64,000 bases of DNA. Origin: Patescibacteria group bacterium. GTDB lineage: Bacteria > Patescibacteriota > Minisyncoccia > Phycocordibacterales > PALSA-1337. The stretch spans positions 1,601 to 65,600 of the forward strand of contig JAGWJT010000001.1 in NCBI GenBank assembly GCA_028865615.1, read 5' to 3'. The notes below the pieces were generated by a model that worked only from the letters and a program-made list of their open reading frames with translations, was not told where the DNA came from and searched no databases. A program made the translations under genes and the position numbers. This document shows positions 13,931 to 39,688 of the stretch, one piece after another; position 1 is the stretch's first letter; each line of letters starts with the position of its first letter.

Positions 13931-14051
13931 GACCCGCAGCGGCATCGGTTGAAGAACATTTCGCAGGAATTTTCCAGCAGGAAAATTCCGAGACATAGCG
14001 CGGCCCCTGCAGGGGCCGACGCGTGTTCTTCAACCGATGCCGCTGCGGGTC
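13931..14051. repeat. palindromic intergenic element, copy A (conserved core + locus-specific 13-bp perfect inverted outer arms gacccgcagcggc / gccgctgcgggtc)
   Basis: Core ttcgcaggaattttccagcaggaaaattccgagacatagcgcggcccctgcaggggccgacgcgtg flanked by catcggttgaagaaca / tgttcttcaaccgatg; between convergent cysS and the 14080..14340 gene. Confidence 0.7.
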
Positions 14052-14079
14052 ACTCAACGTGAACACCGATAAAACCCGC

Positions 14080-14340
14080 TCAATCTAGCATAGCGCTCTC
14101 CTTGAACCTGGCGAAGTCGCGGATCTCGCCTTTGACGTCGGACAATTCATCGGCGATATCCTGTCTGCTGGCCTCTATCTTGTCCTCGAGGTCGGCCAGC
14201 CTGCCGTATATGCGCGATTCCGCCGCGTCTATGCGCTCCTCGAGCCTTTCGAAAGACCGGCCTATGGACACGGCCACGTCGTCGCCGTTCTTGTATATGA
14301 CACGCTCTAATAATTCGATGTCTTTTTGTTCTAATGACAT
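14080..14340 (-). CDS. hypothetical small coiled-coil protein
   Basis: 86 aa, charged heptad-like sequence (LEERIDAAESRIYGRLADLEDKIEASRQDIADEL). Confidence 0.45.
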   Translation of the reverse strand: MSLEQKDIELLERVIYKNGDDVAVSIGRSFERLEERIDAAESRIYGRLADLEDKIEASRQDIADELSDVKGEIRDFARFKESAMLD

Positions 14341-14396
14341 ATTTTTTGGCGTTACCTAATAATAACGATACGATAGCAAGTGACCGATAAAATCCG

Positions 14397-14452
14397 ACTC
14401 AAAAAAGTCTCAAATCCAGATAAAAAAAGTCTCAAATCCAGATAAAATTTCT
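14397..14452. promoter_or_regulatory. A-rich tandem motif (aaaaagtctcaaatccagataaaa x2), copy 1 of 3
   Basis: Exact 25-bp tandem duplication in the divergent region between the 14080..14340 gene and dnaB; related copies at 18585-18640 and 25721-25760. Confidence 0.45.
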
Positions 14453-14461
14453 TTCCACAGC

Positions 14462-15919
14462 TTGTCCACCGAAAAAGCGCCTGACGCCTCTCTTGATTCA
14501 TGCCCGCCCGTGCTACAATATGGATACATGAGCCCTCTGTCGCCATACCTGAAGACCAAAGACTTGAAGATACCTCCCCAAAATATCGAGGCGGAAAAGG
14601 CTCTTTTGGGCTCGGTGATGATGCGCGGCGAAGCTATGCACGACATAGTAGATATCGTCGGAGAAAGGTCTTTCTATTCGAACCAGCACAAAGCCATCTG
14701 GCAGAGCCTCTTCGAGCTCCATTCAAAGAACGTGCCCATAGACCTGCTCTCGTTGTCGACCCGCCTCAAGGAAAAAGGCCGCCTAGAAGAAGTAGGTGGC
14801 ATGTCGTATCTTACCGAGCTCATCAATGCCGTACCGTCGTCGACCAACGCCTCTCACTATGCGGAGATAGTCGAGAAGAAGCATGTCATGCGAGAGCTTA
14901 TACGGGCATCGGAGACCATAGGCGATCTCGGATACGACGAGGAGGCGGACTTGCACGACATCCTAGAGAAGGCCGAAAAAGCCCTTTACGAGGTGACCAA
15001 CAAGTCCGGTTCGCACAAATTTGTCGCATTGAAGGACACCCTCGACGAGGCCTGGGAGCGCATAGACCATCTGCACAATACCAGGCATGAGCTCAGGGGC
15101 GTGCCTACGGGCTTCCAGGAGATAGACAACAAGCTGTCCGGATTCCAGAAGTCCGATCTGATCATCTTGGCAGCTCGGCCTTCGATGGGTAAGACTTCCC
15201 TAGCCCTCGACATAGCCCGCAAAGCCGCCGTCAATCACAAAGTGCCCGTGGCCATATTCTCGCTGGAAATGTCATCCCAACAGCTGGTAGACCGCATGCT
15301 TGCAGCCGAGTCGCAGGTGGACGCCTGGAAGCTGCGTACCGGCCACAATCTATCCGTAGAGCACGACTTCAAGGCCATAGGAGACGCCATAAGCAGGCTG
15401 TCGGAGGCTCCCATATACATCGACGACCAGCCCGGCAACCATATCCTCAAGATGCGCGCCGTGGCCCGGCGCCTCAAGAACGAGGGCAAACTCGGCCTCA
15501 TCGTCGTGGATTACCTCCAGCTCATGGTGCCGACCAATGCCGGCAGATACAACGACAATCTCGTCCAGCAAGTCACCGAGATATCCAGATCGCTCAAGAA
15601 CCTGGCCCGCGAGCTGGAAGTGCCCGTACTGGCCCTCTCCCAGCTGTCTCGCGCCGTGGAACAGCGTGGCGGCAAGCCCCGTCTGTCCGACCTTCGCGAT
15701 TCCGGATCCATAGAGCAAGACGCCGACGTGGTCATGTTCATCCATCGCGAAGCCGACCAGGACCAAGGCGGCAGGAAGGAGGAGGCTGAGATCATGATAG
15801 AGAAGCACCGCAACGGTCCGACCGGCTCGATCAAGCTGTACTTCGATTCCAAGAAGACCTCGTTCCTGTCCGTCGACAAAGCCGACTTCGGCGATTTCGA
15901 AAAAGCCGCGGCAAACTGA
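14462..15919 (+). CDS. dnaB: replicative DNA helicase DnaB
   Basis: 485 aa; N-terminal PPQNIEAEKALLGSVM, Walker A ARPSMGKT, RecA-like C-domain; start may be the downstream Met (MSPLSPY, ~14528). Confidence 0.9.
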   Translation: MSTEKAPDASLDSCPPVLQYGYMSPLSPYLKTKDLKIPPQNIEAEKALLGSVMMRGEAMHDIVDIVGERSFYSNQHKAIWQSLFELHSKNVPIDLLSLSTRLKEKGRLEEVGGMSYLTELINAVPSSTNASHYAEIVEKKHVMRELIRASETIGDLGYDEEADLHDILEKAEKALYEVTNKSGSHKFVALKDTLDEAWERIDHLHNTRHELRGVPTGFQEIDNKLSGFQKSDLIILAARPSMGKTSLALDIARKAAVNHKVPVAIFSLEMSSQQLVDRMLAAESQVDAWKLRTGHNLSVEHDFKAIGDAISRLSEAPIYIDDQPGNHILKMRAVARRLKNEGKLGLIVVDYLQLMVPTNAGRYNDNLVQQVTEISRSLKNLARELEVPVLALSQLSRAVEQRGGKPRLSDLRDSGSIEQDADVVMFIHREADQDQGGRKEEAEIMIEKHRNGPTGSIKLYFDSKKTSFLSVDKADFGDFEKAAAN

Positions 15920-15927
15920 TCACTAGT

Positions 15928-16584
15928 ATGGACAGCATGCGACGATTAGAAGAGATATTCGCTCATTTCCCCGGCATCGGGCCGCGGCAAGCAAAGCGCT
16001 TCGTCTATTATCTCCTGAATAGACCGTCCGCTTCCATAAAAGAATTCACAGACTTGATCCACGAAGTCAAAACCTCGACGGCCGAATGCAATCGATGCCA
16101 CCGATTCTTCATGAGTGGAAATAGAGAAGCGGCTGGCGGCGGCAGAAAAACGGTTGTATGTCCTACTTGCGCCGATACATCGCGCGACTCTTCCCTGCTC
16201 ATGGTCGTGGCACGCGATTCGGATTTCGAATCGATAGAGAGAAGCGGCGCCTACAAAGGCCTGTATTTCGTCCTTGGAGGCACAGTGCCAGTCTTGGACA
16301 AAGAGCCAGATAAACGCATACGGTTGAAAGGGCTGTTGGCCAGGCTTGCCCAAAAAGACTCCCCTATCAAAGAAGTGATCTTGTCTCTGAATACCACTCC
16401 TGACGGCGAGAATACCGCGGAAACAGTGAAGCATGCGCTGCTCGATGCATCCGGCGCCGATCCGCTCTCATCGACGGAAACAAACATCAAATTGACCGTC
16501 CTGGGCCGCGGCCTTTCCACCGGCGCCGAGCTAGAATACGTCGACGGCGAGACGATCAGGAATGCCCTGTTGAATAGGCACTAG
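15928..16584 (+). CDS. recR: recombination protein RecR
   Basis: 218 aa; HhH (FPGIGPRQAKRFVYYLL), C4 zinc finger (CNRCHRFF...CPTC), Toprim region. Confidence 0.9.
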   Translation: MDSMRRLEEIFAHFPGIGPRQAKRFVYYLLNRPSASIKEFTDLIHEVKTSTAECNRCHRFFMSGNREAAGGGRKTVVCPTCADTSRDSSLLMVVARDSDFESIERSGAYKGLYFVLGGTVPVLDKEPDKRIRLKGLLARLAQKDSPIKEVILSLNTTPDGENTAETVKHALLDASGADPLSSTETNIKLTVLGRGLSTGAELEYVDGETIRNALLNRH

Positions 16585-16706
16585 TAGGCATCGGGACATC
16601 GGTTGAAGAACATTTCGCAGGAATTTTCCAGCAGGAAAATTCCGAGATATAGCGCGGCCTCTGCAGAGGCCGACGCGTGTTCTGAGGCCGATGTCCCGAT
16701 GCCTAC
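16584..16706. repeat. palindromic intergenic element, copy B (outer arms gtaggcatcggga / tcccgatgcctac)
   Basis: Same conserved core; exactly fills the gap between the recR stop and the rplU stop (convergent). Confidence 0.7.
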
Positions 16707-17039
16707 TTATCCCAGGGAATCAATTTTGACCTTGAAGTAGTGCTGGCGATGGCCATTTCTGGTCCAGCCGGAACGGCTCTTCTGTTTGTATTTGACTACC
16801 AGGACCTTGGCGGATCGGCCGATCTTGGATATGGTGCCGGTCACTTTGGCTTTGGCTATGTAAGGGGTCCCTATAGTAGTATCTTTGCCGTTATCTACAA
16901 GCAAAATCTTGTCGAAGACGACTTGGTCGCCCTCTTTGTATTCTTTGCCTTTTTCAGCCAAAAGCTTCTCGATAGTGATGGTATCGCCCTTGGAAACGGT
17001 ATATTGCTTGCCTCCTGTGGCTATGACTGCAAATTCCAT
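16707..17039 (-). CDS. rplU: 50S ribosomal protein L21
   Basis: MEFAVIATGGKQYTVSKGDTI matches the L21 N-terminus; the longer ORF to 17078 is an upstream extension. Confidence 0.85.
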   Translation of the reverse strand: MEFAVIATGGKQYTVSKGDTITIEKLLAEKGKEYKEGDQVVFDKILLVDNGKDTTIGTPYIAKAKVTGTISKIGRSAKVLVVKYKQKSRSGWTRNGHRQHYFKVKIDSLG

Positions 17040-17093
17040 AGTGCGTCCCACTATACAGGAATGGGTCCAAAAACGCAACTTTTTGGGTTTTTG

Positions 17094-17217
17094 GGGACCG
17101 GCGCGGACATCGGTTGAAGAACATTTCGCAGGAATTTTCCAGCAGGAAAATTCCGAGACATAGCGCGGCCTCTGCAGAGGCCGACGCGTGTTCTGAGGCC
17201 GATGTCCGCGCCGGTCC
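17094..17217. repeat. palindromic intergenic element, copy C (outer arms ggaccggcgcgga / tccgcgccggtcc)
   Basis: Same conserved core; between the rmuC stop and the rplU start (same strand). Confidence 0.7.
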
Positions 17218-18275
17218 TATTCAGTGACTTCCGGTTTGTCCAGCAAAACCGGCTCCAGACCCGGAGTCTCGCCCGTTATGCGCAAGACGTCCTTGTCTAC
17301 CTTCTTGAATTCCTTGCTCGAATTGTTGTAGTGGTTGACTACGGTCGATAGCGACACGCCAAGCTTGGAATGGTAATCCTCGTATTTTTTCAGGTGGGTG
17401 CCCAGCTGACCGACATGCTTGACTATATCCTTGGCTGTTTCTTCGATCTGCATAGCCTTCAAACCCTGCAAAACGGTCTGCAGATAGGCCAAGAACGAGG
17501 TCGGCGACACTATGATGACCTTGTACTTGCTGGCGGCGCGCTGTATCAGATTGTCCGTCTCGTCGGCGGATGAACCGATCTTGTTCACGAGCAGATCATA
17601 ATAGATAGCCTCATGCGGTATGAACATGAAAGCGAAGTCCATGGTCTTCTCGTCGGGCCTGATATATTTGGCCGTTTCCTGGATGCGCAGCTTGAGATCG
17701 TTGACGAAAGCCTTCTCCAGACGTTCCTTGTCGGCCGGATTCTTCTCCTCGGCCATCTTGTTGTAGTTTTCCAACGAGAACTTCGAGTCGACGGGTATGA
17801 CCTTGTCTTTGACGAAAACGGCCGCATCCACTACTTCCCCATTCTTGAACGGATATTGCATCTGATATTGGCCGGGTGGCAAAACATTCTTGAGCAAGGT
17901 CTCCAGATAATATTCGCCGAGGATGCCGCGATGCTTGGGATTCTTGAGTATATCCTCGAGCTCGCGTAGCTGGTTCTGAACAGACAAACTCTGTTCGCCT
18001 ATCTTCTTGACCTGAGTGATCTCGCTGGTGATGTCCTTGATCAACCTCTGCGACTCGCCGAACTGGCGATGGAGAGCGTTGGACATCTCCTTTGTGTTCT
18101 CGCCCAACTTGCGGTCGACTGTGTCGGACAAGCGATTGACCTGATCCAGCAACAACTTCAAGCCCGAGGAATCGTCAGTCGGCTTTATCCCTCTCTTTCC
18201 GCGAGAAATGGCCGCTAGTTGGATGATAATAACGACTGCTACGAGAATTATAAGTAGTATGAGTAGGATTTCCAT
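17217..18275 (-). CDS. rmuC: DNA recombination protein RmuC
   Basis: 352 aa; N-terminal TM, long coiled coil, C-terminal RmuC nuclease-like region (FMFIPHEAIYYDLL...VIIVSPTSFLAYLQ). Confidence 0.8.
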   Translation of the reverse strand: MEILLILLIILVAVVIIIQLAAISRGKRGIKPTDDSSGLKLLLDQVNRLSDTVDRKLGENTKEMSNALHRQFGESQRLIKDITSEITQVKKIGEQSLSVQNQLRELEDILKNPKHRGILGEYYLETLLKNVLPPGQYQMQYPFKNGEVVDAAVFVKDKVIPVDSKFSLENYNKMAEEKNPADKERLEKAFVNDLKLRIQETAKYIRPDEKTMDFAFMFIPHEAIYYDLLVNKIGSSADETDNLIQRAASKYKVIIVSPTSFLAYLQTVLQGLKAMQIEETAKDIVKHVGQLGTHLKKYEDYHSKLGVSLSTVVNHYNNSSKEFKKVDKDVLRITGETPGLEPVLLDKPEVTE

Positions 18276-18277
18276 AT

Positions 18278-18577
18278 CTAATGCATGACTTTATCGACAG
18301 CGTTGTTTACAATATCAATGATAGAAGGAGCTATAGCTAATGTGAATTCTTCACGAAATACTCTTCGTGACTCTTCTGTGGCTATCTCTCTGGCTCTTTC
18401 GTCTGTAGAATAACCGGACATTAGCTCTTTCATTAATTTAAACTCATAACTCATTTTATCCCAAAGCAGGCCGTTATTTAGCTTGACGGCTTCGTTTATA
18501 GACGTATCTATGTATCTTTTATCGCTTATTGTAAGCATTGAAATGTATGCTAATCTTATAATGTCTGGAGTATACAC
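18278..18577 (-). CDS. hypothetical protein (AT-rich, no recognisable domain)
   Basis: 99 aa ORF in an AT-rich stretch directly downstream of rmuC. Confidence 0.4.
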   Translation of the reverse strand: MYTPDIIRLAYISMLTISDKRYIDTSINEAVKLNNGLLWDKMSYEFKLMKELMSGYSTDERAREIATEESRRVFREEFTLAIAPSIIDIVNNAVDKVMH

Positions 18578-18584
18578 ACAAGGT

Positions 18585-18640
18585 GTTCAAATCCGGCTCA
18601 AAAAAGTCTCAAATCCGAATCAAAAAAGAATCAAATTTTA
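18585..18640. promoter_or_regulatory. A-rich tandem motif copy 2 (gttcaaatccggctcaaaaaagtctcaaatccgaatcaaaaaagaatcaaat)
   Basis: Lies in the divergent region between the 18278..18577 gene start and the GatB/YqeY gene; a TATAAT box follows at 18652-18657. Confidence 0.45.
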
Positions 18641-18668
18641 ATAAAATCGCATTATAATCATACACGCC

Positions 18669-19142: not shown

Positions 19143-19394
19143 CACTAGTGGTGCTATAATGACAGCCGAACTCAACGAAAGGTTCTTATGACATTACAGC
19201 GTGGATTGGAATTGCTTCGTGCTACTAGGGAAGCTATAACGCGCGGAGAAGATGTCAATGCGTTGATCCCAAAGATCATCCCGGAGACACGTTTCAAAGT
19301 TCCCATATCTGTTGAAGGTCTTGCGCCATCAACAAAAACTGAGAACGGGCGTGAGTCATCCCTCCAACTCAATATATCTTATATGACATATTGG

Positions 19395-20246: not shown

Positions 20247-20264
20247 GAATTGATTCTACCAGAA

Positions 20265-20389
20265 ATGCAGGAATCAGACACCGGTTGAAGAACATTTCGC
20301 AGGAATTTTCCAGCAGGAAAATTCCGAGACATAGCGCGGCCTCTGCAGAGACCGACGCGTGTTCTGAGGCCGATGTCTGATTCCTGCAT
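20265..20389. repeat. palindromic intergenic element, copy D (outer arms atgcaggaatcaga / tctgattcctgcat)
   Basis: Same conserved core; between the tatD start and the ABC transporter stop. Confidence 0.7.
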
Positions 20390-25188: not shown

Positions 25189-25345
25189 CAATTAGATCAT
25201 TTCCGATGTAGTAAACAGCCCCCAAGTCTACGGCCTTGATCAACCAGCGGTTGCAAAGGCGTTGAGGGGTACGGGGTCCCTCCGGAACAATCTTGCTCCG
25301 CAATGCGGAGATTCTGCAAAAAGCCTTTAAGAGAGGCTTTTTGTT
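25189..25345 (+). ncRNA. candidate small RNA (~155 nt) from a consensus promoter to an intrinsic terminator; no ORF
   Basis: The transcript would run from ~25189 to the terminator at 25317-25345; it contains the hairpin ctccgc-aat-gcggag; there is no downstream + strand gene. Confidence 0.35.
25317..25345. terminator. intrinsic terminator (aaagcct-ttaagag-aggcttt + TTGTTTTT)
   Basis: Stem-loop with T-run; can also serve the minus-strand ORF ending at 25327. Confidence 0.6.
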
Positions 25346-25686
25346 TTTCTGTTCATGACGCTCAGAAAATATGGCTGTTTATCTTTGATTTGTCCGATTA
25401 TCACGACCACTTTCTTATCACCTATCGTTTTTTCGACAGACCATTCTCTGTACGAACCAGAAAGACGACAACCTATAATAGACGTTTTATCTGTCAAAAT
25501 GCTGGGTACGTGGGGTATAAGGCGTAGTCTTCTCATAATATCTTCGGCTGTATGGCCTCCATTGAAGATATGATTCCAACCCCTATGATCAAATATCACA
25601 GGCTTGTCGTCCAATGCTGCGCAACAAATGTGGCCGAACGAAAAATAGATCTGCCGTATCTTTTTGGCGAATGCGTTGTCGAACAT
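25327..25686 (-). pseudogene. possible C-terminal fragment of a metallophosphoesterase (FGHICC ... GGHTAED); low-confidence ORF
   Basis: 119 aa; weak resemblance to the C-terminal GH-x-H region of calcineurin-like phosphoesterases; the N-terminal motifs are absent. Confidence 0.25.
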
Positions 25687-25720
25687 CCACCCACCGTATC
25701 ACAGCGGTGTTCAAGAAACG

Positions 25721-25760
25721 TTCAAAAAAGTCTCAAATCGGAATCAAAAAAGAATCAAAT
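25721..25760. promoter_or_regulatory. A-rich tandem motif copy 3 (ttcaaaaaagtctcaaatcggaatcaaaaaagaatcaaat)
   Basis: Near-identical to copy 2; lies 35-75 bp upstream of the 25327..25686 minus-strand ORF start. Confidence 0.45.
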
Positions 25761-26008
25761 CCGAGTGAAGAAAATGAACCCTAGGCAACAGGCTTGTTAT
25801 ATAAGCCGACCACGGCGTCATGGAAAGATAACGTGATCACATCCGGATCGGACTAGGCCGGCACCGATATGAGCTCGCCCATGTTGACCGGTGAACACGC
25901 CGAGCAGTCCGTATATGAAAGATATGACGTTTATCTCCGGCCTGTAGAAAAGATTGAAATACGCCCATGCCAATGGCCAAGTGACGGTTTGCGATATGCG
26001 TAGAGGAT

Positions 26009-28241: not shown

Positions 28242-29786
28242 ATGAATATCCTGGGCATAGAGACATCGTGCGACGAGACGGCTTTGGCGCTCATCGAGAC
28301 GCGCAAGGACGGAAAATCGGGCATGGGGTTGCGCGTACTGGCTTCGCTGGTGCATTCGCAGGCGGAATTGCATAGCGCCTACGGCGGCGTCTACCCTACT
28401 CTGGCAAAGCGCGAGCATGGCAAAAATATAGTGCCGTTGCTTGGCAAGTTGTTGGAGGAACATGGGAACATTGTCCTGAAGAAACTTTCGGAGCCGTCGC
28501 GGGAGCCAAGTCCGCCTGGTACTGGCGACGGCGAGAACGTAACCCGTCCCGAGCCGGCCCATGTTCCGTGGCAGGCCGGCGAGGGACCGGGTGGTTCTGA
28601 AGGGCAATGTTCCCATGTTCCGACAACATTCAAGGATATCTTAGAGCGATTCAAGGACGAAATCGGTCCGCAAAATCCGGAACTGTTCGCATCGTTCTCG
28701 CACGCCGATTTCCTGCAAGGACCGGCACCGGCCATAGACGCCATAGCAGTGACGGAAGGTCCAGGCTTGGAACCGGCCTTGTGGGTCGGCATCAATTTTG
28801 CCAGGATGCTGGCGGCTTTGTGGCAAGTGCCGATCATCCCCGTCGATCACATGGAGGGACATATAGTCGGCTCGCTTCTGCCTTCGGACGCCGTAGCTCC
28901 GGCCGACGGCAACGGCGGTTGGCAGAGATTGCACGATGCGCCCATGCCGGCCATAGCTCTCCTCATAAGCGGCGGCCATACACAGTTGGTGAAAGTGTGC
29001 CGTCATGGGGCAGGCACAGCAGTCTCCTCACGTCCTGCGGAGCTCACTCGCGGAATCGCCGTCGCCTCGTCGCCTCTGCACCTTCGTGCAGAATTGGCTT
29101 CCTCGGCTCCTGGCGATTCTCGCTCGCTCGAGCAGGACCCTCGGACGTTCGGAAACTCTGTGCCTGCCCCATTTTCCTACACCATCCTCGGCGAGACCAA
29201 GGACGATGCCGTGGGAGAAGCTTTCGACAAGACCGCCAGACTTCTCGGCTTGCCGTATCCCGGCGGTCCTCACCTGTCGGAGCTAGCTCGCAAGGCTCGG
29301 GAAGAGAAGATTCCTGCACTAGTCAAACTGCCTAGACCGATGATCAACTCCGGCGATCTGGATCTTTCATTCTCCGGCTTGAAGACCGCGGTGCTCTACG
29401 TCGTGCGTGACGCCGACAAGAACCCTGACGGCTCACTGCCTGACGCGTTCAGGAAAAGCCTGGCCCAAGAATTCGAGACGGCCGTAGCCGACGTATTGGA
29501 CTTCAAATTGCGCGCGGCGATAGACAAGATCGGCGCCAAGTCCATCATATTGGGCGGCGGCGTATCGGCCAACTCTGTCCTGCGTGCCCGATTTGAGGCC
29601 GCCGCTGTAGAATACGGCATACCTGTATTCATGCCGTCAAGGCATATATCCGGAGACAATGCCCTCATGATAGCCGTGGCCGCGGCCATTCATGCCCATG
29701 AATATACCGGAACGCCCCCCACCGCAAGACGGTGGAGGGCGGACGGGACCAAGCGTCTAGGTGACGCTAGGGCTCATGATCAATGA
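28242..29786 (+). CDS. tsaD: tRNA N6-adenosine threonylcarbamoyltransferase TsaD (Kae1/YgjD family) carrying two large in-frame low-complexity insertions
   Basis: MNILGIETSCDET, PVDHMEGH, GGHTQL, GEAFDKTARLLGL and the C-terminal GGVSAN are all conserved; 514 aa vs ~340 typical; insertions at ~28480-28740 and 29005-29172. Confidence 0.85.
   Translation: MNILGIETSCDETALALIETRKDGKSGMGLRVLASLVHSQAELHSAYGGVYPTLAKREHGKNIVPLLGKLLEEHGNIVLKKLSEPSREPSPPGTGDGENVTRPEPAHVPWQAGEGPGGSEGQCSHVPTTFKDILERFKDEIGPQNPELFASFSHADFLQGPAPAIDAIAVTEGPGLEPALWVGINFARMLAALWQVPIIPVDHMEGHIVGSLLPSDAVAPADGNGGWQRLHDAPMPAIALLISGGHTQLVKVCRHGAGTAVSSRPAELTRGIAVASSPLHLRAELASSAPGDSRSLEQDPRTFGNSVPAPFSYTILGETKDDAVGEAFDKTARLLGLPYPGGPHLSELARKAREEKIPALVKLPRPMINSGDLDLSFSGLKTAVLYVVRDADKNPDGSLPDAFRKSLAQEFETAVADVLDFKLRAAIDKIGAKSIILGGGVSANSVLRARFEAAAVEYGIPVFMPSRHISGDNALMIAVAAAIHAHEYTGTPPTARRWRADGTKRLGDARAHDQ
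29005..29172. repeat. 168-bp in-frame insertion in tsaD bounded by 15-bp perfect inverted repeats (atggggcaggcacag / ctgtgcctgccccat); MITE-like
   Basis: Read directly; corresponds exactly to the 56 aa (CRHGAG...VPAP) absent from canonical TsaD between GGHTQL and the GEAFDK region. Confidence 0.5.
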
Positions 29787-32415: not shown

Positions 32416-33231
32416 TTACGGCTTATTGATATCTTGTCCTATGCCAAGCAGGACCCATCGAATGTCATATATGTCGACCGGCGGAGCGAACACCACCGAG
32501 TCAAAAGGATCTGACGGGTCCGTATTCACTGATATTACAACACCAAATGCTTTGTCATGCAAGGTAGAATCGCTGACAATATCCCCGGGGGCTACGGTCG
32601 AATCATGTGGCACTTGGGCGGTATACTGACCCCCTCCTATGCCCTTGGCGGTCGCGGGGATGCCGCCGGGCCCTATAAGGACTTGATAGCTTTGTCCCGG
32701 CGACGACAGCAGGTCGACGAACGAACTCTCCCCGAACGACTCCGAGACTCGGCCTATGAGGATAGGACCCGGAGCATATACGGGAGTGCCGCTGGCCGCT
32801 CCTTCGTCCGTGCCTAGATCGACGATCAATCTGCCGGAACCGGCAAACGGCGGTCTGGCCAGAACGGCCGCCGCTTTGTACGCGCTTTTGGTGGTAGTGG
32901 CTCTGCCCAATAGAGCCAGGAGATCGGCATTCTGTTGTTCCAATATGGCCAGGCTCGAACTGGACGTCACGGTTTTCAAGCTTGCAATCTGCTGTTTCAG
33001 GTCTTCATTCTCCGCCAACAAGGCTTGCGGATCCTCTAGCGCGCCGTTCTCCAGAGCGAATCTCGTCCGCCAAAATGGGGCGGCCACGGATGAAGCAATA
33101 GATGGAAAAAGCCTTGGAATGCGCCATTCTATAGCGCCGGCCAACACGATGACGACCGCCAAAGCGACAGAGGCCAGCCTCTTTGCCCTGCTAGCTGGGG
33201 CATTATGACGACGAAGGTAGGTCATCTTCAC
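32416..33231 (-). CDS. mreC: rod shape-determining protein MreC
   Basis: 271 aa; N-terminal TM, coiled coil, beta-rich C-terminal domain (GDIVSDSTLHDKAFGVVISV) typical of MreC; follows mreB. Confidence 0.8.
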   Translation of the reverse strand: MKMTYLRRHNAPASRAKRLASVALAVVIVLAGAIEWRIPRLFPSIASSVAAPFWRTRFALENGALEDPQALLAENEDLKQQIASLKTVTSSSSLAILEQQNADLLALLGRATTTKSAYKAAAVLARPPFAGSGRLIVDLGTDEGAASGTPVYAPGPILIGRVSESFGESSFVDLLSSPGQSYQVLIGPGGIPATAKGIGGGQYTAQVPHDSTVAPGDIVSDSTLHDKAFGVVISVNTDPSDPFDSVVFAPPVDIYDIRWVLLGIGQDINKP

Positions 33232-34330
33232 TCTCTATGAGAACGGGCTTGAACCTATCTATGTCCTCGAGTATGACGCCCGCTCCCCTGGCGATAGCGG
33301 TCAAAGGATCATCCGCTATATATACGGGAAGCCTCAAGGTATCCGAGAGCAGGGCGTCCAGGCCTTTGATCAAAGCCCCTCCTCCGACCAGATAGGCGCC
33401 GCGCTTCATGACGTCGGACAATATCTCCGGCGGCGTCGTTTCCAGCACTTCTTTGGAAGCTTCGACCAGAGCTTCTATGGATTGGCTCATGGCTTCTCTG
33501 ATATCGCTATCGGTGATGACGACCTCGCGCGGCAGGCCGGTGATGAGATCTCGACCGCGTATGGTGGTTTCCATCGGCTCATCGGGTATGACGGATCCGA
33601 CGGCTATCTTGACCGCTTCGGCCGTAGTCTCGCCTATGAGTATCTTGAACTCGTTGCGTATATAGGAGATGATGTCGTTGTTCAGCTTGTCTCCGGCGAT
33701 CTTGAGATTCTTGGACCGCACTATGCCGCCGAGGGATATGACGGCTATATCGGTAGTGCCGCCGCCTATGTCTATGACCATGGACCCGACCGGATCATGC
33801 ACAGGAAGTCTGATGCCTATGGCACCGGCCATGGGTTGTTCTACTATATATACTTCGCGGGCGCCGGCATTCCTGGTGGCGTCTCGCACGGCTCTGACCT
33901 CTACGTTGGTGACACCGGAGGGCACACCGACCACTACGCGAGGGCCCAGGAAACGCTTCGGCAAGAATGCGGAAGCGCGGTTCATGAGGTATGAGAGCAT
34001 CTCTTCCGTCACCTCGAAATCTGATATTACGCCGTCCACCAGCGGCCTGACCGCCTTGATGTGAGCAGGCGTACGGCCGAGCATGTCTTTGGCCATGGCG
34101 CCGACCGCAACCACTTGGCCGGTCTTCTCGTTCACCGCTACAACTGACGGCTCGTTGACCACGATGCCCTTGCCGCGGACGTACACGAGAGTGTTGGCGG
34201 TGCCGAGGTCTATGCCGATGTCGTTGGACGCACCGGAGAACAATCTGTCCTTCCAGCCCTTGAAGCTGCTCCTGGCTCCGCTCAATCTGAAACTGTTCAT
34301 AACGCCGGATTTGCCGTTGTTTTTAGCCAT
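33203..34330 (-). CDS. mreB: rod shape-determining protein MreB (actin homologue)
   Basis: DIGIDLGTANTLVYVRGKGIVVNEPSVVAV, DIGGGTTDIAVISLGGIV and other actin/MreB motifs. Confidence 0.9.
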   Translation of the reverse strand: MAKNNGKSGVMNSFRLSGARSSFKGWKDRLFSGASNDIGIDLGTANTLVYVRGKGIVVNEPSVVAVNEKTGQVVAVGAMAKDMLGRTPAHIKAVRPLVDGVISDFEVTEEMLSYLMNRASAFLPKRFLGPRVVVGVPSGVTNVEVRAVRDATRNAGAREVYIVEQPMAGAIGIRLPVHDPVGSMVIDIGGGTTDIAVISLGGIVRSKNLKIAGDKLNNDIISYIRNEFKILIGETTAEAVKIAVGSVIPDEPMETTIRGRDLITGLPREVVITDSDIREAMSQSIEALVEASKEVLETTPPEILSDVMKRGAYLVGGGALIKGLDALLSDTLRLPVYIADDPLTAIARGAGVILEDIDRFKPVLIESEDDLPSSS

Positions 34331-34435
34331 GCCTGTACATTACCACAACGCAAGAATATGGGTAATTGACAAGTCTTGTAAAATTTTTCCCAATTAAGAT
34401 CCCGCAAGGCTGCCGCCGACTCTCCGGACCAATCC

Positions 34436-35692
34436 TTAAAAGGAACCAACGGGCACCATATCCACCTTCCCCGTTACGCGATCTTTGACTTCGACTGACC
34501 CGCCGCCGAGAGAACCGGCATCGCTCGACTTCAGAGTTTTCTCCGACACCACATAACGCTTTGGTATGCCTATAAGATCCGCATCGCCGAATTTTTCGCC
34601 GGCCGAACATTGACGGTCATCGTAGAGGACTTCGACGCCTTTGCTCGTCAGCTTCTCATATAGCTCATCGGCAACTTTCTTGACTTTGCCTTCTTCGTCG
34701 AACAGAGCTACTAGATGCACGGCAAAAGGCGCGACTGACTCCGGCCAGACGATGCCTTTGTCGTCAGCCGTGAGCTCCACTATAGTGCCCATGACTCGTC
34801 CCGGGCCGATGCCGTATGAGCCCATGAATACCGGCCTCGACTTTCCCGCTTCATCCTTGAAATTCAAACCCAGCGCCTCAGAAAACCTAGTACCGAGAGT
34901 GAAGATATTGCCGACTTCGGCGGCTTTAGCTTCTTTGAGATCTGTGCGCTTAAGCTTGAGATCTTCCAACACCTCATCATTTAAGACCTCTTTGTTTATG
35001 GCACGACCGTCCTCCGCTATATATATGACATCCTCGCCGGCATCGCAGACCGTCTGGAATTCATGCGAGAATTTGGAAAAAGAGCCGCCGGAGGCATTCG
35101 TCACATATGTCTGGTCTCCTATGCCGAGCCGGCCGAAGATCTTCACATATGCCTGCTTGGCCTTTTCGTAAAACTCCGCGTGGGCTTTCTCGTCCACGTT
35201 GAATGAGTACAGATCCTTCATCAAGAACTCTCTGGTGCGCATGATGCCGGACTTTGCTCGTGTCTCGTTGCGGAATTTCGTCTGGAATTGGTACACGGAA
35301 AGCGGCAGGTCGCGATAGGAGCTGATCTGCCCGCGCATAAGGTCTGTCAATGGCTCTTCGTGGGTAAAGCCGAGACCGAGCTCGTCGCCGCTTTTCATCT
35401 TGGTCTTGAACCATACGTCTACTTCTTTGTCTGACCAGCGCTTGGTTGCATCCCACTTGCTCTTGGACTGCAAAGCAGCCAGATGGACTTCCTGGCCGCC
35501 TATGGCGTCCATCTCCTCGCGGATGACGCCGACGATCTTGTTCAAAGTGCGCAAACCGAGCGGCAGATACGAGTACACGCCCGCCATCTCTTTGTGGATG
35601 TAACCGGCCCGGATGAGGAGCTGGGCATTCTTGGACACTTCGTCCTTGGGCGCCTCGCGGCGGGTCTTGGTGAACAGTTTGGACTGCTTCAT
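34436..35692 (-). CDS. proS: prolyl-tRNA synthetase (short class II form)
   Basis: 418 aa; class II motifs and ProRS-like N-terminus (MKQSKLFTKTRREAP...YSYLPLGLRTLNKI). Confidence 0.9.
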   Translation of the reverse strand: MKQSKLFTKTRREAPKDEVSKNAQLLIRAGYIHKEMAGVYSYLPLGLRTLNKIVGVIREEMDAIGGQEVHLAALQSKSKWDATKRWSDKEVDVWFKTKMKSGDELGLGFTHEEPLTDLMRGQISSYRDLPLSVYQFQTKFRNETRAKSGIMRTREFLMKDLYSFNVDEKAHAEFYEKAKQAYVKIFGRLGIGDQTYVTNASGGSFSKFSHEFQTVCDAGEDVIYIAEDGRAINKEVLNDEVLEDLKLKRTDLKEAKAAEVGNIFTLGTRFSEALGLNFKDEAGKSRPVFMGSYGIGPGRVMGTIVELTADDKGIVWPESVAPFAVHLVALFDEEGKVKKVADELYEKLTSKGVEVLYDDRQCSAGEKFGDADLIGIPKRYVVSEKTLKSSDAGSLGGGSVEVKDRVTGKVDMVPVGSF

Positions 35693-35887
35693 TGGTTTAT
35701 GTCATGAATCATAACCTGAAAGCCGATGTTTGTCAGTAGCCTTGTATTTGCAAAACATTAAAATCATGCATACAATATACAGCAATATGATCGAAATCTA
35801 TATCTTAAGTGCCTTGCTTCTTATCGGGTTCGTCCTTCTGGGCATCTGGATGAGCATAGAGATCAAGAATGGCAAGAATAAGTGATG

Positions 35888-37003
35888 TTAGTTGATCAGT
35901 TTCACTATATCCTTCCACGTCACCGCCACCATGAGGATCATCAGGAGGGCAAAACCGATCAAGTTGACTGCATTGGTGAAGCGGGGCGATATGCGCCTAC
36001 GGATGACGCCTTCTATGGCCACAAATAGGATGCGGCCACCGTCTAGAGCCGGAAACGGTATCAAGTTGACCACGCCGAGATTGATAGAAATGATGGCCAT
36101 GACCATGATGAGATATTTCATGCCCATATGAGCGGCGTTACCCACGATACCGGCTATGCCGACTGGCCCTGCTACTTGCGAAAAGTCGGGATGACCCACG
36201 AATATATTGGCAATGAATGTGTACAAGCCTACAACCGTCTCTTTTATAAGCACGCCGGTATATCGCAATCCTTCCCATACGGATGTGGTGAAAGGCAGAC
36301 GCATATCTACCACATTGTCCATGGATATGCCTATGGCGTATTTGCCATGGATGATGCTAGTGGTCGCTTCAACGGTTGCCGCAAAAGCATTCCCTTCGCG
36401 AGAATAACCGATAGTCACAGGCTTGCCTGCTGAGGCATTTATCTCGTCTTGTATGGAAGATACGGTGCTCCTAGACAAAAGAATGTCGCCTTCCTTGAGT
36501 CCGGCCTTTTCCGCCGGCGAACCAGGCTCCACATATGTGATCATTATCCGGGGATTGGAAAAGTGCGATGCGTACTGCTCGAAGCCGTCAGTCGAAGCCG
36601 TCACGCCGGCCGTAAATACTCCGACATACAGGAACCACGCGAATATGAAATTGAACAGCACCCCGGCGGCAAGGACGATGGCTTGTTTCCAGCGAGCCTT
36701 GAGGACGAAGCTGCGCGAGGCTTCCGGACCGGCCACATCGAGCGACTGCTCATCCGGATTCTCGCCGAAGATCTTGACATAACCGCCGAAAGGCAGCCAG
36801 TTGACGCCGTATTCCGTTTCACCGGCTTTCAACTCACCTGTAGCCGGATCTTTCTTCTTGGATCGCCATGCAAAAACCTTCGGTCCGAAGCCCAGCTTGA
36901 AAGCGTCCACCCTTATGCCGAACAGCTTGGCCGCCAGGAAATGCCCCAGCTCATGCACGAAGATGAGGACCGCGAGGACTATAATGAAGATGATAACCGT
37001 CAT
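35888..37003 (-). CDS. rseP: RIP metalloprotease RseP (site-2 protease) with PDZ domain
   Basis: 371 aa; HELGH zinc motif in TM1, PDZ region, C-terminal LDGG motif. Confidence 0.85.
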   Translation of the reverse strand: MTVIIFIIVLAVLIFVHELGHFLAAKLFGIRVDAFKLGFGPKVFAWRSKKKDPATGELKAGETEYGVNWLPFGGYVKIFGENPDEQSLDVAGPEASRSFVLKARWKQAIVLAAGVLFNFIFAWFLYVGVFTAGVTASTDGFEQYASHFSNPRIMITYVEPGSPAEKAGLKEGDILLSRSTVSSIQDEINASAGKPVTIGYSREGNAFAATVEATTSIIHGKYAIGISMDNVVDMRLPFTTSVWEGLRYTGVLIKETVVGLYTFIANIFVGHPDFSQVAGPVGIAGIVGNAAHMGMKYLIMVMAIISINLGVVNLIPFPALDGGRILFVAIEGVIRRRISPRFTNAVNLIGFALLMILMVAVTWKDIVKLIN

Positions 37004-37007
37004 GAAA

Positions 37008-37080
37008 ATTTCTAATTAACCTAATTGATCTAATTTCTAAACTTTAGGTTAATTAGATCAATTAGAAATTAGGTCAATTA
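37008..37080. repeat. dense array of TAATT-containing 9-bp units in both orientations (taattaacc, taattgatc, taatttc, taattgacc), forming a compound palindrome
   Basis: Read directly; occupies the whole rseP-promoter / frr-terminator intergenic gap. Confidence 0.4.
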
Positions 37081-37631
37081 CCCATAATTTCCTTTTCCTT
37101 TTTATCATAAAGCGCGTCAAGCTTCTTGTTGGCATCATCGACGATCTTCTGCATCTCGTTCTTCAATCGGAAAATATCATCCTTGCCGAAACCGCCGGAC
37201 TTCTCCTTGGCCTGAATATCCCTCATGACATCTTCTCTATGGCCGCGCACATGCTTCTTGGCATCCTCGAGCTTGTCTTTGGCGACCTTGGCGAAATCCT
37301 TGCGCTTGTCTGAAGTCAGTTCCGGGAAATTCACTCTCACACCATCGGAATCAGTCACCACGGACAGTCCAAGGTTCGATATGGTTATGGCTTTCTCTAT
37401 CTCCTTGACCTGAGCCTTGTCCCAAGGAGCGATGCGCAACGATCTGGCGCCTTCTATGACGATGCTGGCGACCTCTTTCAAGGCCATGGGCGCACCATAG
37501 ACATCTACTTTGACGCTATCCAGGACCGCCGGCGAAGCCATGCCCGTCCTTATGCCGGAGAGCTCTTTCCTGAGCCACTCTTCGGCCGCGGCCATGTTCT
37601 TCTTGAAATTATTGAAATCGTAGTTTGCCAT
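37074..37631 (-). CDS. frr: ribosome recycling factor
   Basis: 185 aa; typical Frr sequence (LDSVKVDVYGAPMALKEVASI...). Confidence 0.9.
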   Translation of the reverse strand: MANYDFNNFKKNMAAAEEWLRKELSGIRTGMASPAVLDSVKVDVYGAPMALKEVASIVIEGARSLRIAPWDKAQVKEIEKAITISNLGLSVVTDSDGVRVNFPELTSDKRKDFAKVAKDKLEDAKKHVRGHREDVMRDIQAKEKSGGFGKDDIFRLKNEMQKIVDDANKKLDALYDKKEKEIMGN

Positions 37632-37649
37632 TCGTCTACGCTCGGCGGT

Positions 37650-37745
37650 AATTTCATTTCACCTCAAATCCGAATGTCAGAGCGATTCGTACGGATGATT
37701 ACCGAACTTGTTCGGTTTGAGTTGAAATGAAATTACCGCTTCGCT
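37650..37745. promoter_or_regulatory. 23-bp inverted repeat (cggtaatttcatttcacctcaaa / tttgagttgaaatgaaattaccg) with a ~50-nt structured loop, upstream of frr
   Basis: One mismatch in 23; the loop contains the sub-hairpin ccgaac-ttgt-tcgg. Confidence 0.35.
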
Positions 37746-37762
37746 ATGGCAATGATAGCATA

Positions 37763-38518
37763 TCATACGGTCATTGCCACATATTCAAGCAACATCTTCA
37801 GAGACGGGGCGCGGTCGTTGGTGTATTTGCGCGCCAGTTCTATGGCTTCAAGGGCTTTGACGTTGCCTTTGACGCCTTTGGCATGAATGGCGGCTTCGAT
37901 GCTATCGAGAAGATCTATGGCGTCTTGTTTGGTCTTTTTCTCTTTTGATATGTCGTCCATGAGCGATTTGATCATGTCGAAACGCTTGGCCGGGGCGGCA
38001 CGTAGAAATCCTTCGACATCATATGCAGACTTGACCAGCTTGGTTGAACCGATCAGTCGAGCATTCTCCGCACCGGCACTTCTGTTTGAAGGCGCGGCAC
38101 CACTGTAAGATGAAGTGTCCATTAGCGATAGGCGCGATCTGACCGTTGGCAAAAGCAGGTGCGCCGATGGTAATATCAGGAAAAAGCGCGCATACTCCGG
38201 CGGCTCTTCCAGGAGCTTCAGGAGTGCATTCTGCGCCTCGACCGTGATTCCGTCCATCCTGAGCACGAATATCTTCTTGCCATCTCCGTCGTTTTTGCTG
38301 ACGTCGGTGACAGGTCTAGTACCCGAGAGCGCTTTCAGCTCCCTGGCGTCGTCTATGGTGAGCGTCTGATACTCCCTATCGAAGAAGTCCGGATTGCCAC
38401 GCGTCTTTATCTTCTGCTTCTTCTCAAGAATGGAAATTATCTCGGCATGAATAGATGCGCCGCCGATCAGCAGGTTGGCGTGATGGGACATGAGGCTAGA
38501 TTGTGATACCGGATTCAC
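37763..38518 (-). CDS. holB: DNA polymerase III delta-prime-like subunit (clamp-loader family, no P-loop)
   Basis: 251 aa; QNALLKLLEEPP and SRLSL (SRC-like) motifs; Walker A absent. Confidence 0.6.
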   Translation of the reverse strand: MNPVSQSSLMSHHANLLIGGASIHAEIISILEKKQKIKTRGNPDFFDREYQTLTIDDARELKALSGTRPVTDVSKNDGDGKKIFVLRMDGITVEAQNALLKLLEEPPEYARFFLILPSAHLLLPTVRSRLSLMDTSSYSGAAPSNRSAGAENARLIGSTKLVKSAYDVEGFLRAAPAKRFDMIKSLMDDISKEKKTKQDAIDLLDSIEAAIHAKGVKGNVKALEAIELARKYTNDRAPSLKMLLEYVAMTV

Positions 38519-38530
38519 AGACAGATTATA

Positions 38531-39544
38531 CTACCTCTTCGCCACTATCGCCTTCTTGTAGACATCAAGATGGTCGAGAGCTATTCCGGTCCCCTTGGCC
38601 ACGCAGAGCAGGGGTTCCTCCGCCAGCTGCGCCTTGACGCCTGTGCGGCGGAATACCAGCTCCGGCAAGTTGCGCAGGAGAGACGAGCCGCCGGTCATGG
38701 TGATGCCTTGATCGATGATATCGGCCGACAGCTCGGGTGGCGTATCCTGGAGCACGTCTTTGATGGCTTTGACCATGTCTCGAAGCGGTCCCGATATGGC
38801 CTTTACTATCTCATTGGTCTTGATCTCAGTAGAACGCGGCAAACCCGAAATGAAGTCGCGGCCCTTGACCGTCATGGAGAGCTCTTGATCCATGGGTATG
38901 GCCGAACCTATATCGATCTTGATGATCTCGGCCATGTGATCGCCTATGGCTAGATTGAAATTCTTCTTGATGTAGTCCGCGATGGCCGCATCCAGCTTGT
39001 TGCCCGCCACCTTGACCGATGTTGACGAAACGATGCCGCCCAGAGATATGACCGCCACGTCCGTGGTGCCTCCGCCTATGTCCACTACCATGTGGCCGCG
39101 AGCTTCCTGTATAGGTATGCCTGCGCCTATGGCCGCCAGTATCGGTTCCTTGACCACATAAGCATTCTTGGCGCCGGCGCGGATGGCGGCTTCGATGACG
39201 GCGCGCCGTTCCGTGGAAGTGACGCTGGCCGGGACGGATATCATCACCTCGGGTTTCCATACGGCAAAGCGGCCAAGGGCTTTGTCTATGAAGTACCGGA
39301 GCATCGCCTCGGTCACGCGGTAGTCCGCGATGACGCCGTCCTTCATGGGCCTGTAGGCGACTATAGTATCAGGCGTGCGACCGACCATCTCCTTGGCTTC
39401 GTTGCCTACGGCCAGGACCTTCTTGTCTACTTCGGAGACGGCCACCACCGATGGCTCATTGAGTATGATGCCTTTCTTCGGCACGAATACGAGAGTGTTG
39501 GCGGTACCGAGGTCTATGCCCAGTTTGGCAGAAAATAAAGCCAT
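38531..39544 (-). CDS. second MreB/Mbl-like actin homologue
   Basis: 337 aa; LGIDLGTANTLVFVPKKGIILNEPSVVAV, DIGGGTTDVAVISLGGIV. Confidence 0.85.
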   Translation of the reverse strand: MALFSAKLGIDLGTANTLVFVPKKGIILNEPSVVAVSEVDKKVLAVGNEAKEMVGRTPDTIVAYRPMKDGVIADYRVTEAMLRYFIDKALGRFAVWKPEVMISVPASVTSTERRAVIEAAIRAGAKNAYVVKEPILAAIGAGIPIQEARGHMVVDIGGGTTDVAVISLGGIVSSTSVKVAGNKLDAAIADYIKKNFNLAIGDHMAEIIKIDIGSAIPMDQELSMTVKGRDFISGLPRSTEIKTNEIVKAISGPLRDMVKAIKDVLQDTPPELSADIIDQGITMTGGSSLLRNLPELVFRRTGVKAQLAEEPLLCVAKGTGIALDHLDVYKKAIVAKR

Positions 39545-39567
39545 AATTGGGGACTATAGCATGAAGA

Positions 39568-39688
39568 GAAACTAGCGGACAAGGCCTGACTGACACTTCG
39601 CAGGCGATTCCTAGCAAGGAATCGCCGAGATGTAGCGCGGCCTCTGCAGAGGCCGACGCGTGTCAGGAAGGCCTTGTCCGCTAGTTTC
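39568..39688. repeat. palindromic intergenic element, copy E (diverged core; 20-bp perfect outer arms gaaactagcggacaaggcct / aggccttgtccgctagtttc), overlapping the murA stop
   Basis: Core ttcgcaggcgattcctagcaaggaatcgccgagatgtagcgcggcctctgcagaggccgacgcgtg; the right arm includes the murA TAG stop. Confidence 0.6.

Follow-up and report, generated by a model that had tools for sequence, protein, structure and literature searches.

Y-shaped palindromic repeats in a Patescibacteria genome: probable copies of a structure-dependent selfish DNA

The window (the whole 64-kb stretch of DNA that was analysed) contains five same-strand copies of a repeat, here called family 1, each ~123 nt long and built around one conserved core. 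Their coordinates and common strand had been predicted from the sequence and were borne out for all five. A 29-nt degenerate core pattern matched the window exactly five times, against zero matches expected from 100 shuffles. The window also holds two copies of a larger sister family (family 2, ~170-180 nt) and one possible representative of a third, giving seven or eight Y-shaped palindromic elements:

13930-14052, plus strand, family-1 copy A (cmsearch 119.6 bits)
16583-16707, plus strand, family-1 copy B (121.2 bits)
17095-17217, plus strand, family-1 copy C (119.9 bits)
20265-20389, plus strand, family-1 copy D (110.6 bits)
28450-28628, plus strand, family-2 copy of about 180 nt in a divergent intergenic region
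37645-37739, no strand assigned, possible third family
39567-39689, plus strand, family-1 copy E (123.9 bits)
51962-52129, minus strand, family-2 copy of 168 nt (56 codons), in frame in dnaE (49479-52901) and antisense to it

Copy A lies between the convergent cysS and an 86-aa ORF. As predicted, copy B fills the recR/rplU gap: the recR stop codon is at 16582-16584, the stem at 16583-16707 and the rplU stop at 16707-16709, and both stop codons are entered by the stem ends. Copy C has the rmuC stop (1-nt overlap) on one side and the rplU start on the other, and copy D runs from an ABC-transporter stop to the tatD start. Copy E, upstream of mreB, overlaps the murA stop by 8 nt, in agreement with the overlap noted earlier. 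A minus-strand gene stop is found 0-28 nt from each of the five copies, and element stems end at or within stop codons. The proposed location at gene 3' ends thus holds for the five copies in the window, but not as a rule for the family. We considered the copies as intrinsic terminators and rejected this: no T- or A-run adjoins any of the five on either side, whereas the window's own terminators are A-tract/GC-stem/T-tract hairpins (2022-2049, 8707-8740 and 25317-25343).

In the fold of family 1, an outer stem of ~28 bp closes a three-way junction whose own bases are invariant and which bears two hairpins; fold z-scores of the window copies range from -9.9 to -14. Hairpin hp1 (13966-13989 in copy A) is A/T-rich with an AGCA loop. 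Hairpin hp2 (about 13998-14022) is GC-rich, is directly preceded by (G/A)TAG and has the consensus (G/A)TAG + CGCGGnnnC-UGCA-GnnnCCG-A-CGCG, in which the single bulged A is invariant. The preceding tag reads GTAG in 14 of 23 copies, ATAG in eight and TTAG in one, the last three bases being constant. No Rfam 15 family matched at gathering threshold, consistent with the initial impression that the core resembles nothing recognised, and a permissive Rfam search gave nothing beyond generic long-hairpin matches, which scored far below threshold.

The original prediction described the arms as locus-specific and exactly complementary. They are indeed unrelated between copies and paired within each: the 28-29-bp stem of copy A is fully paired (29/29), the outer arms of B, C and E are perfect, and copy D, which has two single-base changes, shows one C.A mismatch on the plus strand, in its shared inner part. 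However, copies A-D have about 15 bp of the stem in common (CATCGGTTGAAGAAC), which leaves just the outermost 12-14 bp specific to each copy; their identical unit ends at one symmetric position (GA|CATCGG...CCGATG|TC) inside unrelated arms. Copy E represents a second subfamily, whose hp1 and inner stem covary relative to A-D. Pairing ends sharply at the element ends, the arms of the five copies do not recur elsewhere in the window, and neither a target-site duplication nor a conserved target or flank motif was found around the copies. Across the family the stem length is nearly constant at 29.1 +/- 3.0 bp.

That pairing is kept while sequence varies, as had been claimed, was evident from the family alignment, in which 96.8% of cells were paired and double changes occurred in 27 of 42 pairs. 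None of 500 shuffles scored as high, and slid controls were only 27-49% paired; pair 22-58 covaried perfectly. Pairing is therefore upheld by compensated changes. One strand is favoured, with 29 G.T against 8 A.C oppositions (p=0.00075; 21 against 7 once de-duplicated), and a tandem G.A is present in 22 of 23 family copies (the tandem G.A/A.G mismatch is conserved in B-E). Hairpins hp1 and hp2 contain zero G.U in about 550 cells.

A covariance-model search recovered further diverged copies. More than 30 copies are now known, all in Patescibacteria MAGs and metagenomes, and a junction-only pattern search returned true copies only from CPR MAGs and groundwater or soil metagenomes. Hosts are Paceibacteria/Taylorbacteria, Saccharibacteria and relatives, with very high core conservation between Saccharibacteria and Paceibacteria. 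Most copies, including all five in the window, abut stop codons. Orientation is random: relative to the upstream gene, loci with a sense folded strand and loci with an antisense one are about equally numerous. In one Taylorbacteria MAG the whole 28-bp stem is common to three loci with unrelated flanks. Copies decay with age and trade modules with one another: cores are degraded or altered in L108, L102 and the second L024 copy, and of the orthologous copies L075 and L096, one has hp2 replaced and the hp1 loop inverted relative to the other. On the element strand GC skew is negative at about 20 of 31 loci and coding is mostly on the opposite strand (about 15 versus 9), both weak trends from short fragments. 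A lagging-strand ssDNA mechanism would predict a stronger link to skew and gene strand than this, a point against the selfish-DNA reading.

Family 2 shares the design of family 1. The outer stem of the intergenic copy (~21 bp) is unique, and this copy also has a three-way junction (UUUCGGAG...CGAGAACGUA), a UGAAG/CUGAAG loop and a GAAAC/GGUUC helix. The dnaE copy is located between the finger and HhH domains of DnaE, and further in-frame copies are found in dnaE of L105-L107; infB likewise has in-frame copies in L043 and L108, including one of family 1. These infB and dnaE copies occur in both orientations and encode unrelated peptides. All seven coding copies with nucleotide sequence (window, L105, L106, L107, L109, L043 and L108) are in frame and stop-free, and elements carry 2.2 open frames each compared with 1.1 in shuffles. 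In infB, GAAGCG, which encodes a conserved Glu-Ala of IF-2, pairs with CGCTTC, so that the palindrome enters host codons. Judging from these reading frames, copies inside essential genes are translated and not removed.

Compensated changes and G.A motifs are equally expected of a functional RNA, and a structured RNA with covarying pairs had been one of the two initial suggestions. The elements would then be cis-acting modules at mRNA 3' ends, kept by selection at each locus, with the long stem serving as a terminator, stabiliser or RNase III site and the junction binding a protein. Strong covariation of three helices around an invariant junction fits such a module, as do the strand preference in G.A internal loops and G.U wobbles, the uniform stem length and the proximity to stop codons at gene ends that have no canonical terminator (a relative has one after L21). 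Nevertheless we judge it unlikely. Past the stem there is no U-tract on either strand, the absence of G.U from hp1 and hp2 is unusual for RNA, and no Rfam family matches. Random orientation, in-frame copies in both directions, a family-2 copy between divergent gene starts and the loss of core pairing in old copies all show that the family does not behave like a gene-linked regulatory RNA.

The other suggestion, insertion into the loops of pre-existing terminator hairpins, can be compared with orthologous sites. Sites A and C are empty in the syntenic L102 and L103, without a hairpin, leaving a 3-nt gap or overlapping stops, and gaps of 79 and 38 nt. What relatives have at site B is a canonical terminator or else a diverged, oppositely oriented element whose arms are different. 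Seven close orthologs have an empty, hairpin-free dnaE loop, and four others carry different elements there; in total the loop is occupied in five lineages by different elements in both orientations. It measures 6-9 residues when empty, and the arms span 12-27 bp when it is occupied. A hairpin-only state was seen at the dnaE site of L109. No fresh insertion with an exact empty allele at the nucleotide level was seen among the relatives compared, because these are only 75-89% identical in the flanking proteins.

In its general form the hairpin-loop proposal holds that a ~95-nt mini-element with short terminal inverted repeats enters resident hairpins, the arms being target DNA; the targets would be terminators, or, if the proposal is modified, hairpin 'sockets' that earlier elements had left behind. 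The symmetric ends of the identical A-D unit inside unrelated arms would follow naturally, and the stem always comes to about 28 bp, of which 15 bp would be carried and 12-14 bp resident. The L109 site and the existence of a few GC-rich, non-terminator perfect hairpins in CPR DNA also agree with it. Yet the arms do not resemble the genome's terminators, orthologous empty sites were found without the expected outer hairpin, and a free 12-14-bp GC-rich hairpin is absent from the window. Moreover, the three Taylorbacteria copies carried the whole stem to unrelated loci, and naive coding sites cannot have held such hairpins. We therefore abandon terminator loops as targets and consider the wider proposal very unlikely.

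A host function is another conceivable cause of the near-constant stem length and of the very high core conservation between Saccharibacteria and Paceibacteria. A domesticated DNA structure, for instance a cruciform or ssDNA site through which a conserved host protein acts in recombination, replication priming or chromosome organisation in the manner of attC/dif-like sites or single-strand origins, would account for these features across deep CPR lineages and for a strand asymmetry without a link to transcription. Two resemblances, which we take as leads only, are that of the T/Y-shaped hairpin to parvoviral ITRs and that of the TAGCG motif to the CS-6 motif of ssoA origins. We give this explanation very little weight, because a copy may be present in one close relative and absent from another, because number and position vary from genome to genome, and because copies occur inside essential genes and also decay, none of which fits a site that the host requires. 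A partner protein was not identified either.

The five repeats are instead probably copies of a non-autonomous, structure-dependent selfish DNA, members of a new superfamily restricted to Patescibacteria. The family was previously undescribed. The initial view of a non-chance, mobile-element-like repeat family was supported. The element is dispersed, is present or absent at orthologous sites, and inserts wherever the compact genome can accommodate some 120-180 additional bases, either just past stop codons in either orientation or in frame in surface loops and linkers of IF-2 and DnaE. The arms were absent before the element arrived.

Movement of this selfish DNA would occur in trans, through an enzyme recognising one folded DNA strand. 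A RAYT/TnpA(REP)-like HUH nuclease is our first guess, given the REP hallmarks of hp2 and a folded strand that is recognisable by its wobble pairs and G.A motifs. A Pfam scan of ~60 of the ~66 window ORFs detected no transposase, as noted before, nor any HUH nuclease, integrase or reverse transcriptase; this lack of a mobilising enzyme among the scanned ORFs speaks against a selfish-DNA reading. The unique arms may be products of hairpin-templated synthesis, by fold-back or template switch, in which one flank is copied to the other side, together with core exchange between older resident hairpins. A few host bases inside two stems hint at such a fold-back origin. Hairpin-primed synthesis at or after insertion would copy the host flank across to a limit of about 28 bp, with a protein on the three-way junction as the ruler, and would give inverted, not direct, target duplications. 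The driver might be a CPR enzyme, possibly RAYT-like, that recognises Y-shaped single-stranded DNA, and cores could hop between hairpin 'sockets' made by fold-back. Taken together as one reading, fold-back arms, junction ruler, CPR enzyme and core hopping are conceivable but doubtful.

There is a match, in behaviour only, to the Rickettsia palindromic elements (RPEs), palindromic repeats of 100-150 bp in a reduced genome that are found between genes and in frame in unrelated, often essential genes, where they are translated (PMC10969869). Both systems insert into coding and non-coding DNA with no transposase nearby. RPEs, however, occur in Rickettsiales, each RPE family encodes a conserved peptide in one orientation, and a conserved Y-shaped centre with locus-specific arms has not been described for them; the distinction drawn here is by hosts, orientation and peptides.

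The proposed likeness to elements that act as folded single strands was supported. REP determinants comprise a GTAG tetranucleotide directly 5' of a bulged, imperfect GC-rich stem-loop of 20-40 nt (PMC8266576), and REPIN hairpins are kept by compensatory change, with a putative hairpin-shaped intermediate (PMC3116915). The (G/A)TAG tag and bulged base of hp2, the hairpin dependence, the compensated changes and the decay of old copies all conform to this signature. In contrast, REPINs are extragenic and consist of two inverted REPs as conserved ends around a variable spacer; the present elements have one REP-like hairpin each, a conserved centre and variable ends, and also lie inside genes, and no RAYT gene was seen among the scanned window ORFs. 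The palindrome-associated elements derived from IS200/IS605 (PATEs) are likewise small and non-autonomous, with two different sub-terminal hairpins, strand-specific structure and no target duplication. IS200/IS605 ends are not inverted repeats and insert 3' of a fixed tetra- or pentanucleotide, whereas our elements are closed by a long inverted stem without a conserved flanking motif.

Classical bacterial MITEs (Correia/NEMIS, ERIC, RUP and BOX) share with our elements the short length, the dispersion and the inverted ends; they frequently lie at gene ends and in some cases form in-frame fusions with ORFs. Their terminal inverted repeats are conserved family-wide, and they are flanked by direct target-site duplications, whereas in the present elements each locus has its own terminal 12-20 bp, with no direct duplication. 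Integron attC sites are imperfectly palindromic, lie at the 3' ends of ORFs and are recognised in folded, single-stranded form; they have extrahelical bases, and their structure is conserved more than their sequence. Their conserved outer R/L boxes and variable centre are the opposite layout, and neither cassette arrays nor intI occur here. A conserved centre with unique, perfectly paired ends of constant length is thus the inverse of REPINs and MITEs, and to our knowledge it is not accounted for by any known transposition mechanism.

The genomes of Patescibacteria are very small and streamlined and are usually thought poor in mobile DNA. Seven or eight elements in 64 kb, one of them in the replicative polymerase gene, contrast with that view and would make a second, independent case of the Rickettsia phenomenon of selfish palindromes inside essential proteins of a reduced genome. 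In CPR MAGs the elements will lead to inflated or split gene calls, and the covariance model built in this analysis can be used for masking or counting copies. They also mark permissive loops in DnaE and IF-2 and offer strain-level markers. The possible third family consists of 24-bp arms, 96% paired, around a 47-nt centre; it lies between frr and a holB-like gene and is a candidate relative of families 1 and 2.

All five copies of the proposed repeat were found in the window and read as had been described. A degenerate 29-nt core pattern matched the window five times, always on the plus strand, and gave no match in 100 dinucleotide shuffles. Copies A to E are each predicted to fold into two hairpins closed by one long stem, with energies of −69 to −94 kcal/mol and z-scores of −9.9 to −14. 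The claim that the arms, the locus-specific outer stem halves, are nonetheless self-complementary also held: the outer 12–14 bp are wholly unlike between copies and perfectly paired inside each, and pairing ends abruptly at the arm ends. The observation of a five-copy family is confirmed, far beyond chance. A repeat scan added a larger sister family (family 2, ∼170–180 nt) of the same design. Its outer arms are unique and near-perfect; between them lie a UGAAG/CUGAAG loop, a short helix and, with strands similar to those of family 1, a three-way junction. The window contains:

13930–14052, plus strand: family 1, copy A
16583–16707, plus strand: family 1, copy B
17095–17217, plus strand: family 1, copy C
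20265–20389, plus strand: family 1, copy D
39567–39689, plus strand: family 1, copy E
28450–28628, plus strand: family 2
51962–52129, minus strand: family 2, 168 nt (56 codons), in frame within dnaE (49479–52901) between the finger and HhH domains

By Pfam, the copies neighbour housekeeping genes (cysS, dnaB, recR, rplU, rmuC, tatD, an ABC transporter, mreB and murA). Copy B indeed fills the recR/rplU gap, spanning from within the recR stop codon to within the rplU stop codon, and copy E overlaps the murA end, as predicted, by 8 nt. No Rfam family matches the element, whether searched at the gathering or at a permissive threshold, and neither search gave any other relevant hit. Nothing on such an element was found in the literature, in line with the original remark that the core matched nothing recognised. 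The rmuC gene (17217–18275, minus strand) is immediately flanked by copy C, inside the four-copy cluster. RmuC has been implicated in restricting inversions that occur at short inverted repeats; its position here is probably a coincidence.

The consensus was derived from an alignment of 23 main-class copies from the window and other genomes. Its closing stem, P1, is continuous and ∼29 bp long (29.1±3.0, n=22), contains a tandem G·A/A·G mismatch in 22 of the 23 copies, and meets P2 and P3 at a tight three-way junction. According to RNAalifold, P2 begins with the invariant A-U pair 21–59, followed by pair 22–58, which is C-G in 14 copies, U-A in 8 and A-U in 1, without exception; UC/GA, a GCA/GA internal loop and a 10-bp A/T-rich hairpin (hp1) with the loop AGCA complete P2. 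P3 (hp2) has (G/A)TAG 5′ of a GC-rich stem, an invariant bulged A and the loop UGCA. Pairing of columns 21/22 with 87/86 was dropped in favour of 21–59 and 22–58, which covary perfectly, and this replacement abolished an apparent minus-strand wobble signal. Across the 42 consensus pairs 96.8% of cells pair; values this high occurred in none of 500 shuffles, and pairing fell to 27–49% when the partners were slid out of register. G·T wobbles in P1 outnumber A·C wobbles 29 to 8 (P=0.00075), or 21 to 7 without related copies, indicating that the strand as written is the folding strand.

Pairing that persists while sequence varies had been ascribed either to a structured RNA or to a mobile mini-element. 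The covariation itself is strong, with double changes in 27 of the 42 pairs, but a gene-linked structured RNA is unlikely. In ∼25 copies compared with the genes at whose stops they lie, the folded strand was sense, antisense or both, a random orientation with respect to genes; any tie of orientation to replication direction is at most weak. Inspected by eye on both strands, the junction does not fit the hammerhead, twister, twister-sister, pistol or hatchet ribozymes, and Rfam agrees.

The mobile-element idea was right in kind, but the mechanism offered with it, insertion into the loops of pre-existing terminator hairpins, is not supported. Plain long hairpins of this genome are classical terminators with an A-tract, GC stem and T-tract, to which the arms bear no resemblance. 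Empty sites do occur in relatives, but without the outer hairpin: in contigs L102 (REEB174) and L103, whose RmuC is 78–80% identical to that of the window, site A consists of 3 nt or overlapping stops and site C of 79 or 38 nt of ordinary promoter DNA, with no hairpin at either. Site B is a canonical terminator in L103; in L102 the element found there has diverged, is oppositely oriented and has different arms. Terminators as the source of the arms are excluded by these data. No donor flank or target carrying an arm sequence was found in the rest of the window.

Copies within genes provided the decisive evidence. In an alignment of close DnaE orthologues, the loop occupied by the family-2 copy comprises only 6–9 residues in seven and carries unrelated insertions in four others. 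In three of these four lineages the insertion is a long hairpin element from this superfamily, in frame in every case, with differing arms, sizes and orientations; the fourth (L109) has a ∼55-nt hairpin only, without the core. No hairpin was found in the vacant dnaE loop of L104 (GACGGGTCAACTTACCGT). A family-1 main-class copy likewise lies in frame within infB (IF-2) of L043. All seven sequenced coding copies (window dnaE, L105, L106, L107, L109, L043 and L108) are in frame and stop-free, which argues that they are translated and rules out splicing or other removal at the RNA level. In this they resemble the Rickettsia palindromic elements, for which in-frame, translated palindromic inserts in genes have been described (PMC10969869).

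The dnaE gene is called as two or three successive overlapping ORFs in several relatives, for example in L105 (1074–4494; PHP 201 aa, 454 aa and 497 aa), and many C-terminal DnaE ‘proteins’ of ∼450–520 aa occur on long contigs; the window dnaE is a single 1140-aa ORF. The split calls may represent true split genes, frameshifts or gene-calling damage from inserted elements. A RhuM-family gene fragment (54112–54675, minus strand) containing a 12-bp perfect hairpin (54415–54439) lies ∼1.2 kb downstream of the window dnaE, and another directly follows dnaE in L104 (2611–3114, minus strand).

Related copies revealed how the elements change. In the orthologous infB inserts of L043 and L108 (hosts 80% identical) the arms are kept, with one compensated pair, and the palindrome reaches host codons, GAAGCG (conserved Glu-Ala) pairing with CGCTTC on the far side. 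The L108 core is decayed, with CTGCAG changed to CTACAG, broken hp2 pairs and an extra 24-nt in-frame hairpin. Between orthologous Saccharibacteria loci (L075/L089 versus L096) the arms are 89% identical, including a compensated change, yet hp2 has a completely different upper stem and the hp1 loop is inverted. One Taylorbacteria MAG has an entire 28-bp stem common to three loci with unrelated flanks, and L031 carries the hp1 of a different copy. Thus whole elements move, copies exchange modules and unused cores decay.

Beyond the window, a first genome-scan pattern was too GC-rich, ∼70 of its 86 matches being chance hits in high-GC genomes. With a pattern in which the junction bases alone were fixed, every true copy came from a Patescibacteria MAG (Taylorbacteria, Paceibacterota, Saccharibacteria or an unclassified CPR bin), and a stricter pattern gave eleven further copies in groundwater and soil metagenomes. 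Covariance model R1 recovered all copies and added diverged ones, namely a second in L024 and one in L102. Scanning viral contigs yielded two chance GC-rich matches only, and thus no evidence for a phage origin. Split half-elements flanking an ORF, a sign of an autonomous parent, were sought in ∼260 kb of CPR DNA and none was found.

These results show a selfish DNA that is dispersed, polymorphic for insertion and conserved in structure, and whose arms were not there beforehand. Hp2 carries the hallmarks of GTAG-tagged REPs: besides the tag itself, a GC stem with imperfect pairing and a base that bulges out. In REPs, TnpA(REP)/RAYT nucleases read these determinants on folded single-stranded DNA (PMC8266576). 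Compensated change also maintains the hairpins of REPINs, whose putative intermediate is hairpin-shaped (PMC3116915). Because of these two likenesses we favour a RAYT-like HUH enzyme as the mobilizing agent, which would act in trans on the folded plus strand; no such gene was detected in the 64-kb window, where ∼60 of the ∼66 ORFs were scanned against Pfam. For the arms, hairpin-templated copying from one flank would fit the data, as stems enter host codons and end exactly at or within stop codons. Core exchange among older resident hairpins is also compatible, given the identical cores of copies A–D in unrelated arms, the constant total of ∼28 bp (15 carried plus 12–14 resident) and the hairpin-only relic in L109. 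Few free ‘socket’ hairpins exist (∼4 in 282 kb). Candidates for such core-less sockets or relics are GC-rich perfect hairpins without A/T tracts (stems 11–12 bp, loops 2–6 nt) at L060 7458–7484 and 3934–3961, L102 8985–9012 and L103 7853–7878, one of them just downstream of an element. The element is a palindromic selfish repeat with an unexplained inverse architecture, of real interest for researchers of mobile DNA and CPR genomes.

Other features of the window were recorded. A palindrome between frr and a holB-like gene (37645–37739; 24-bp arms, 96% paired), whose 47-nt centre can form two small hairpins, may represent a third Y-shaped family. Two further sites look operator-like: at 37007–37080, separating an M50 peptidase gene from frr, an AT-rich cluster of inverted repeats nested in one another (TAATTGATCTAATT...), and at 44264–44336, in the def/fmt gap, a palindrome of GATTCA/TGAATC repeats. 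AAAAAAGTCTCAAATCC-like units with a 22-nt period lie upstream of dnaB (14368–14470), in the divergent yqeY region (18567–18647) and upstream of ORF 25327–25686 (25713–25771), and are probably a shared promoter or operator motif. Two mreB paralogues 5 kb apart (33203–34330 and 38531–39544) are 77% identical in nucleotide sequence along an 83-nt stretch close to the 5′ end, and a PemK/MazF-like toxin-domain ORF (41036–41614, minus strand) overlaps the murA 5′ end by 34 nt. A DUF3800-II RNA motif (RF02961; 56476–56545, plus strand; scoring 54.4 bits where the gathering threshold is 43.2) adjoins and partly overlaps a DUF3800-domain gene (ORF 56528–57106, minus strand), an association already known for this motif.
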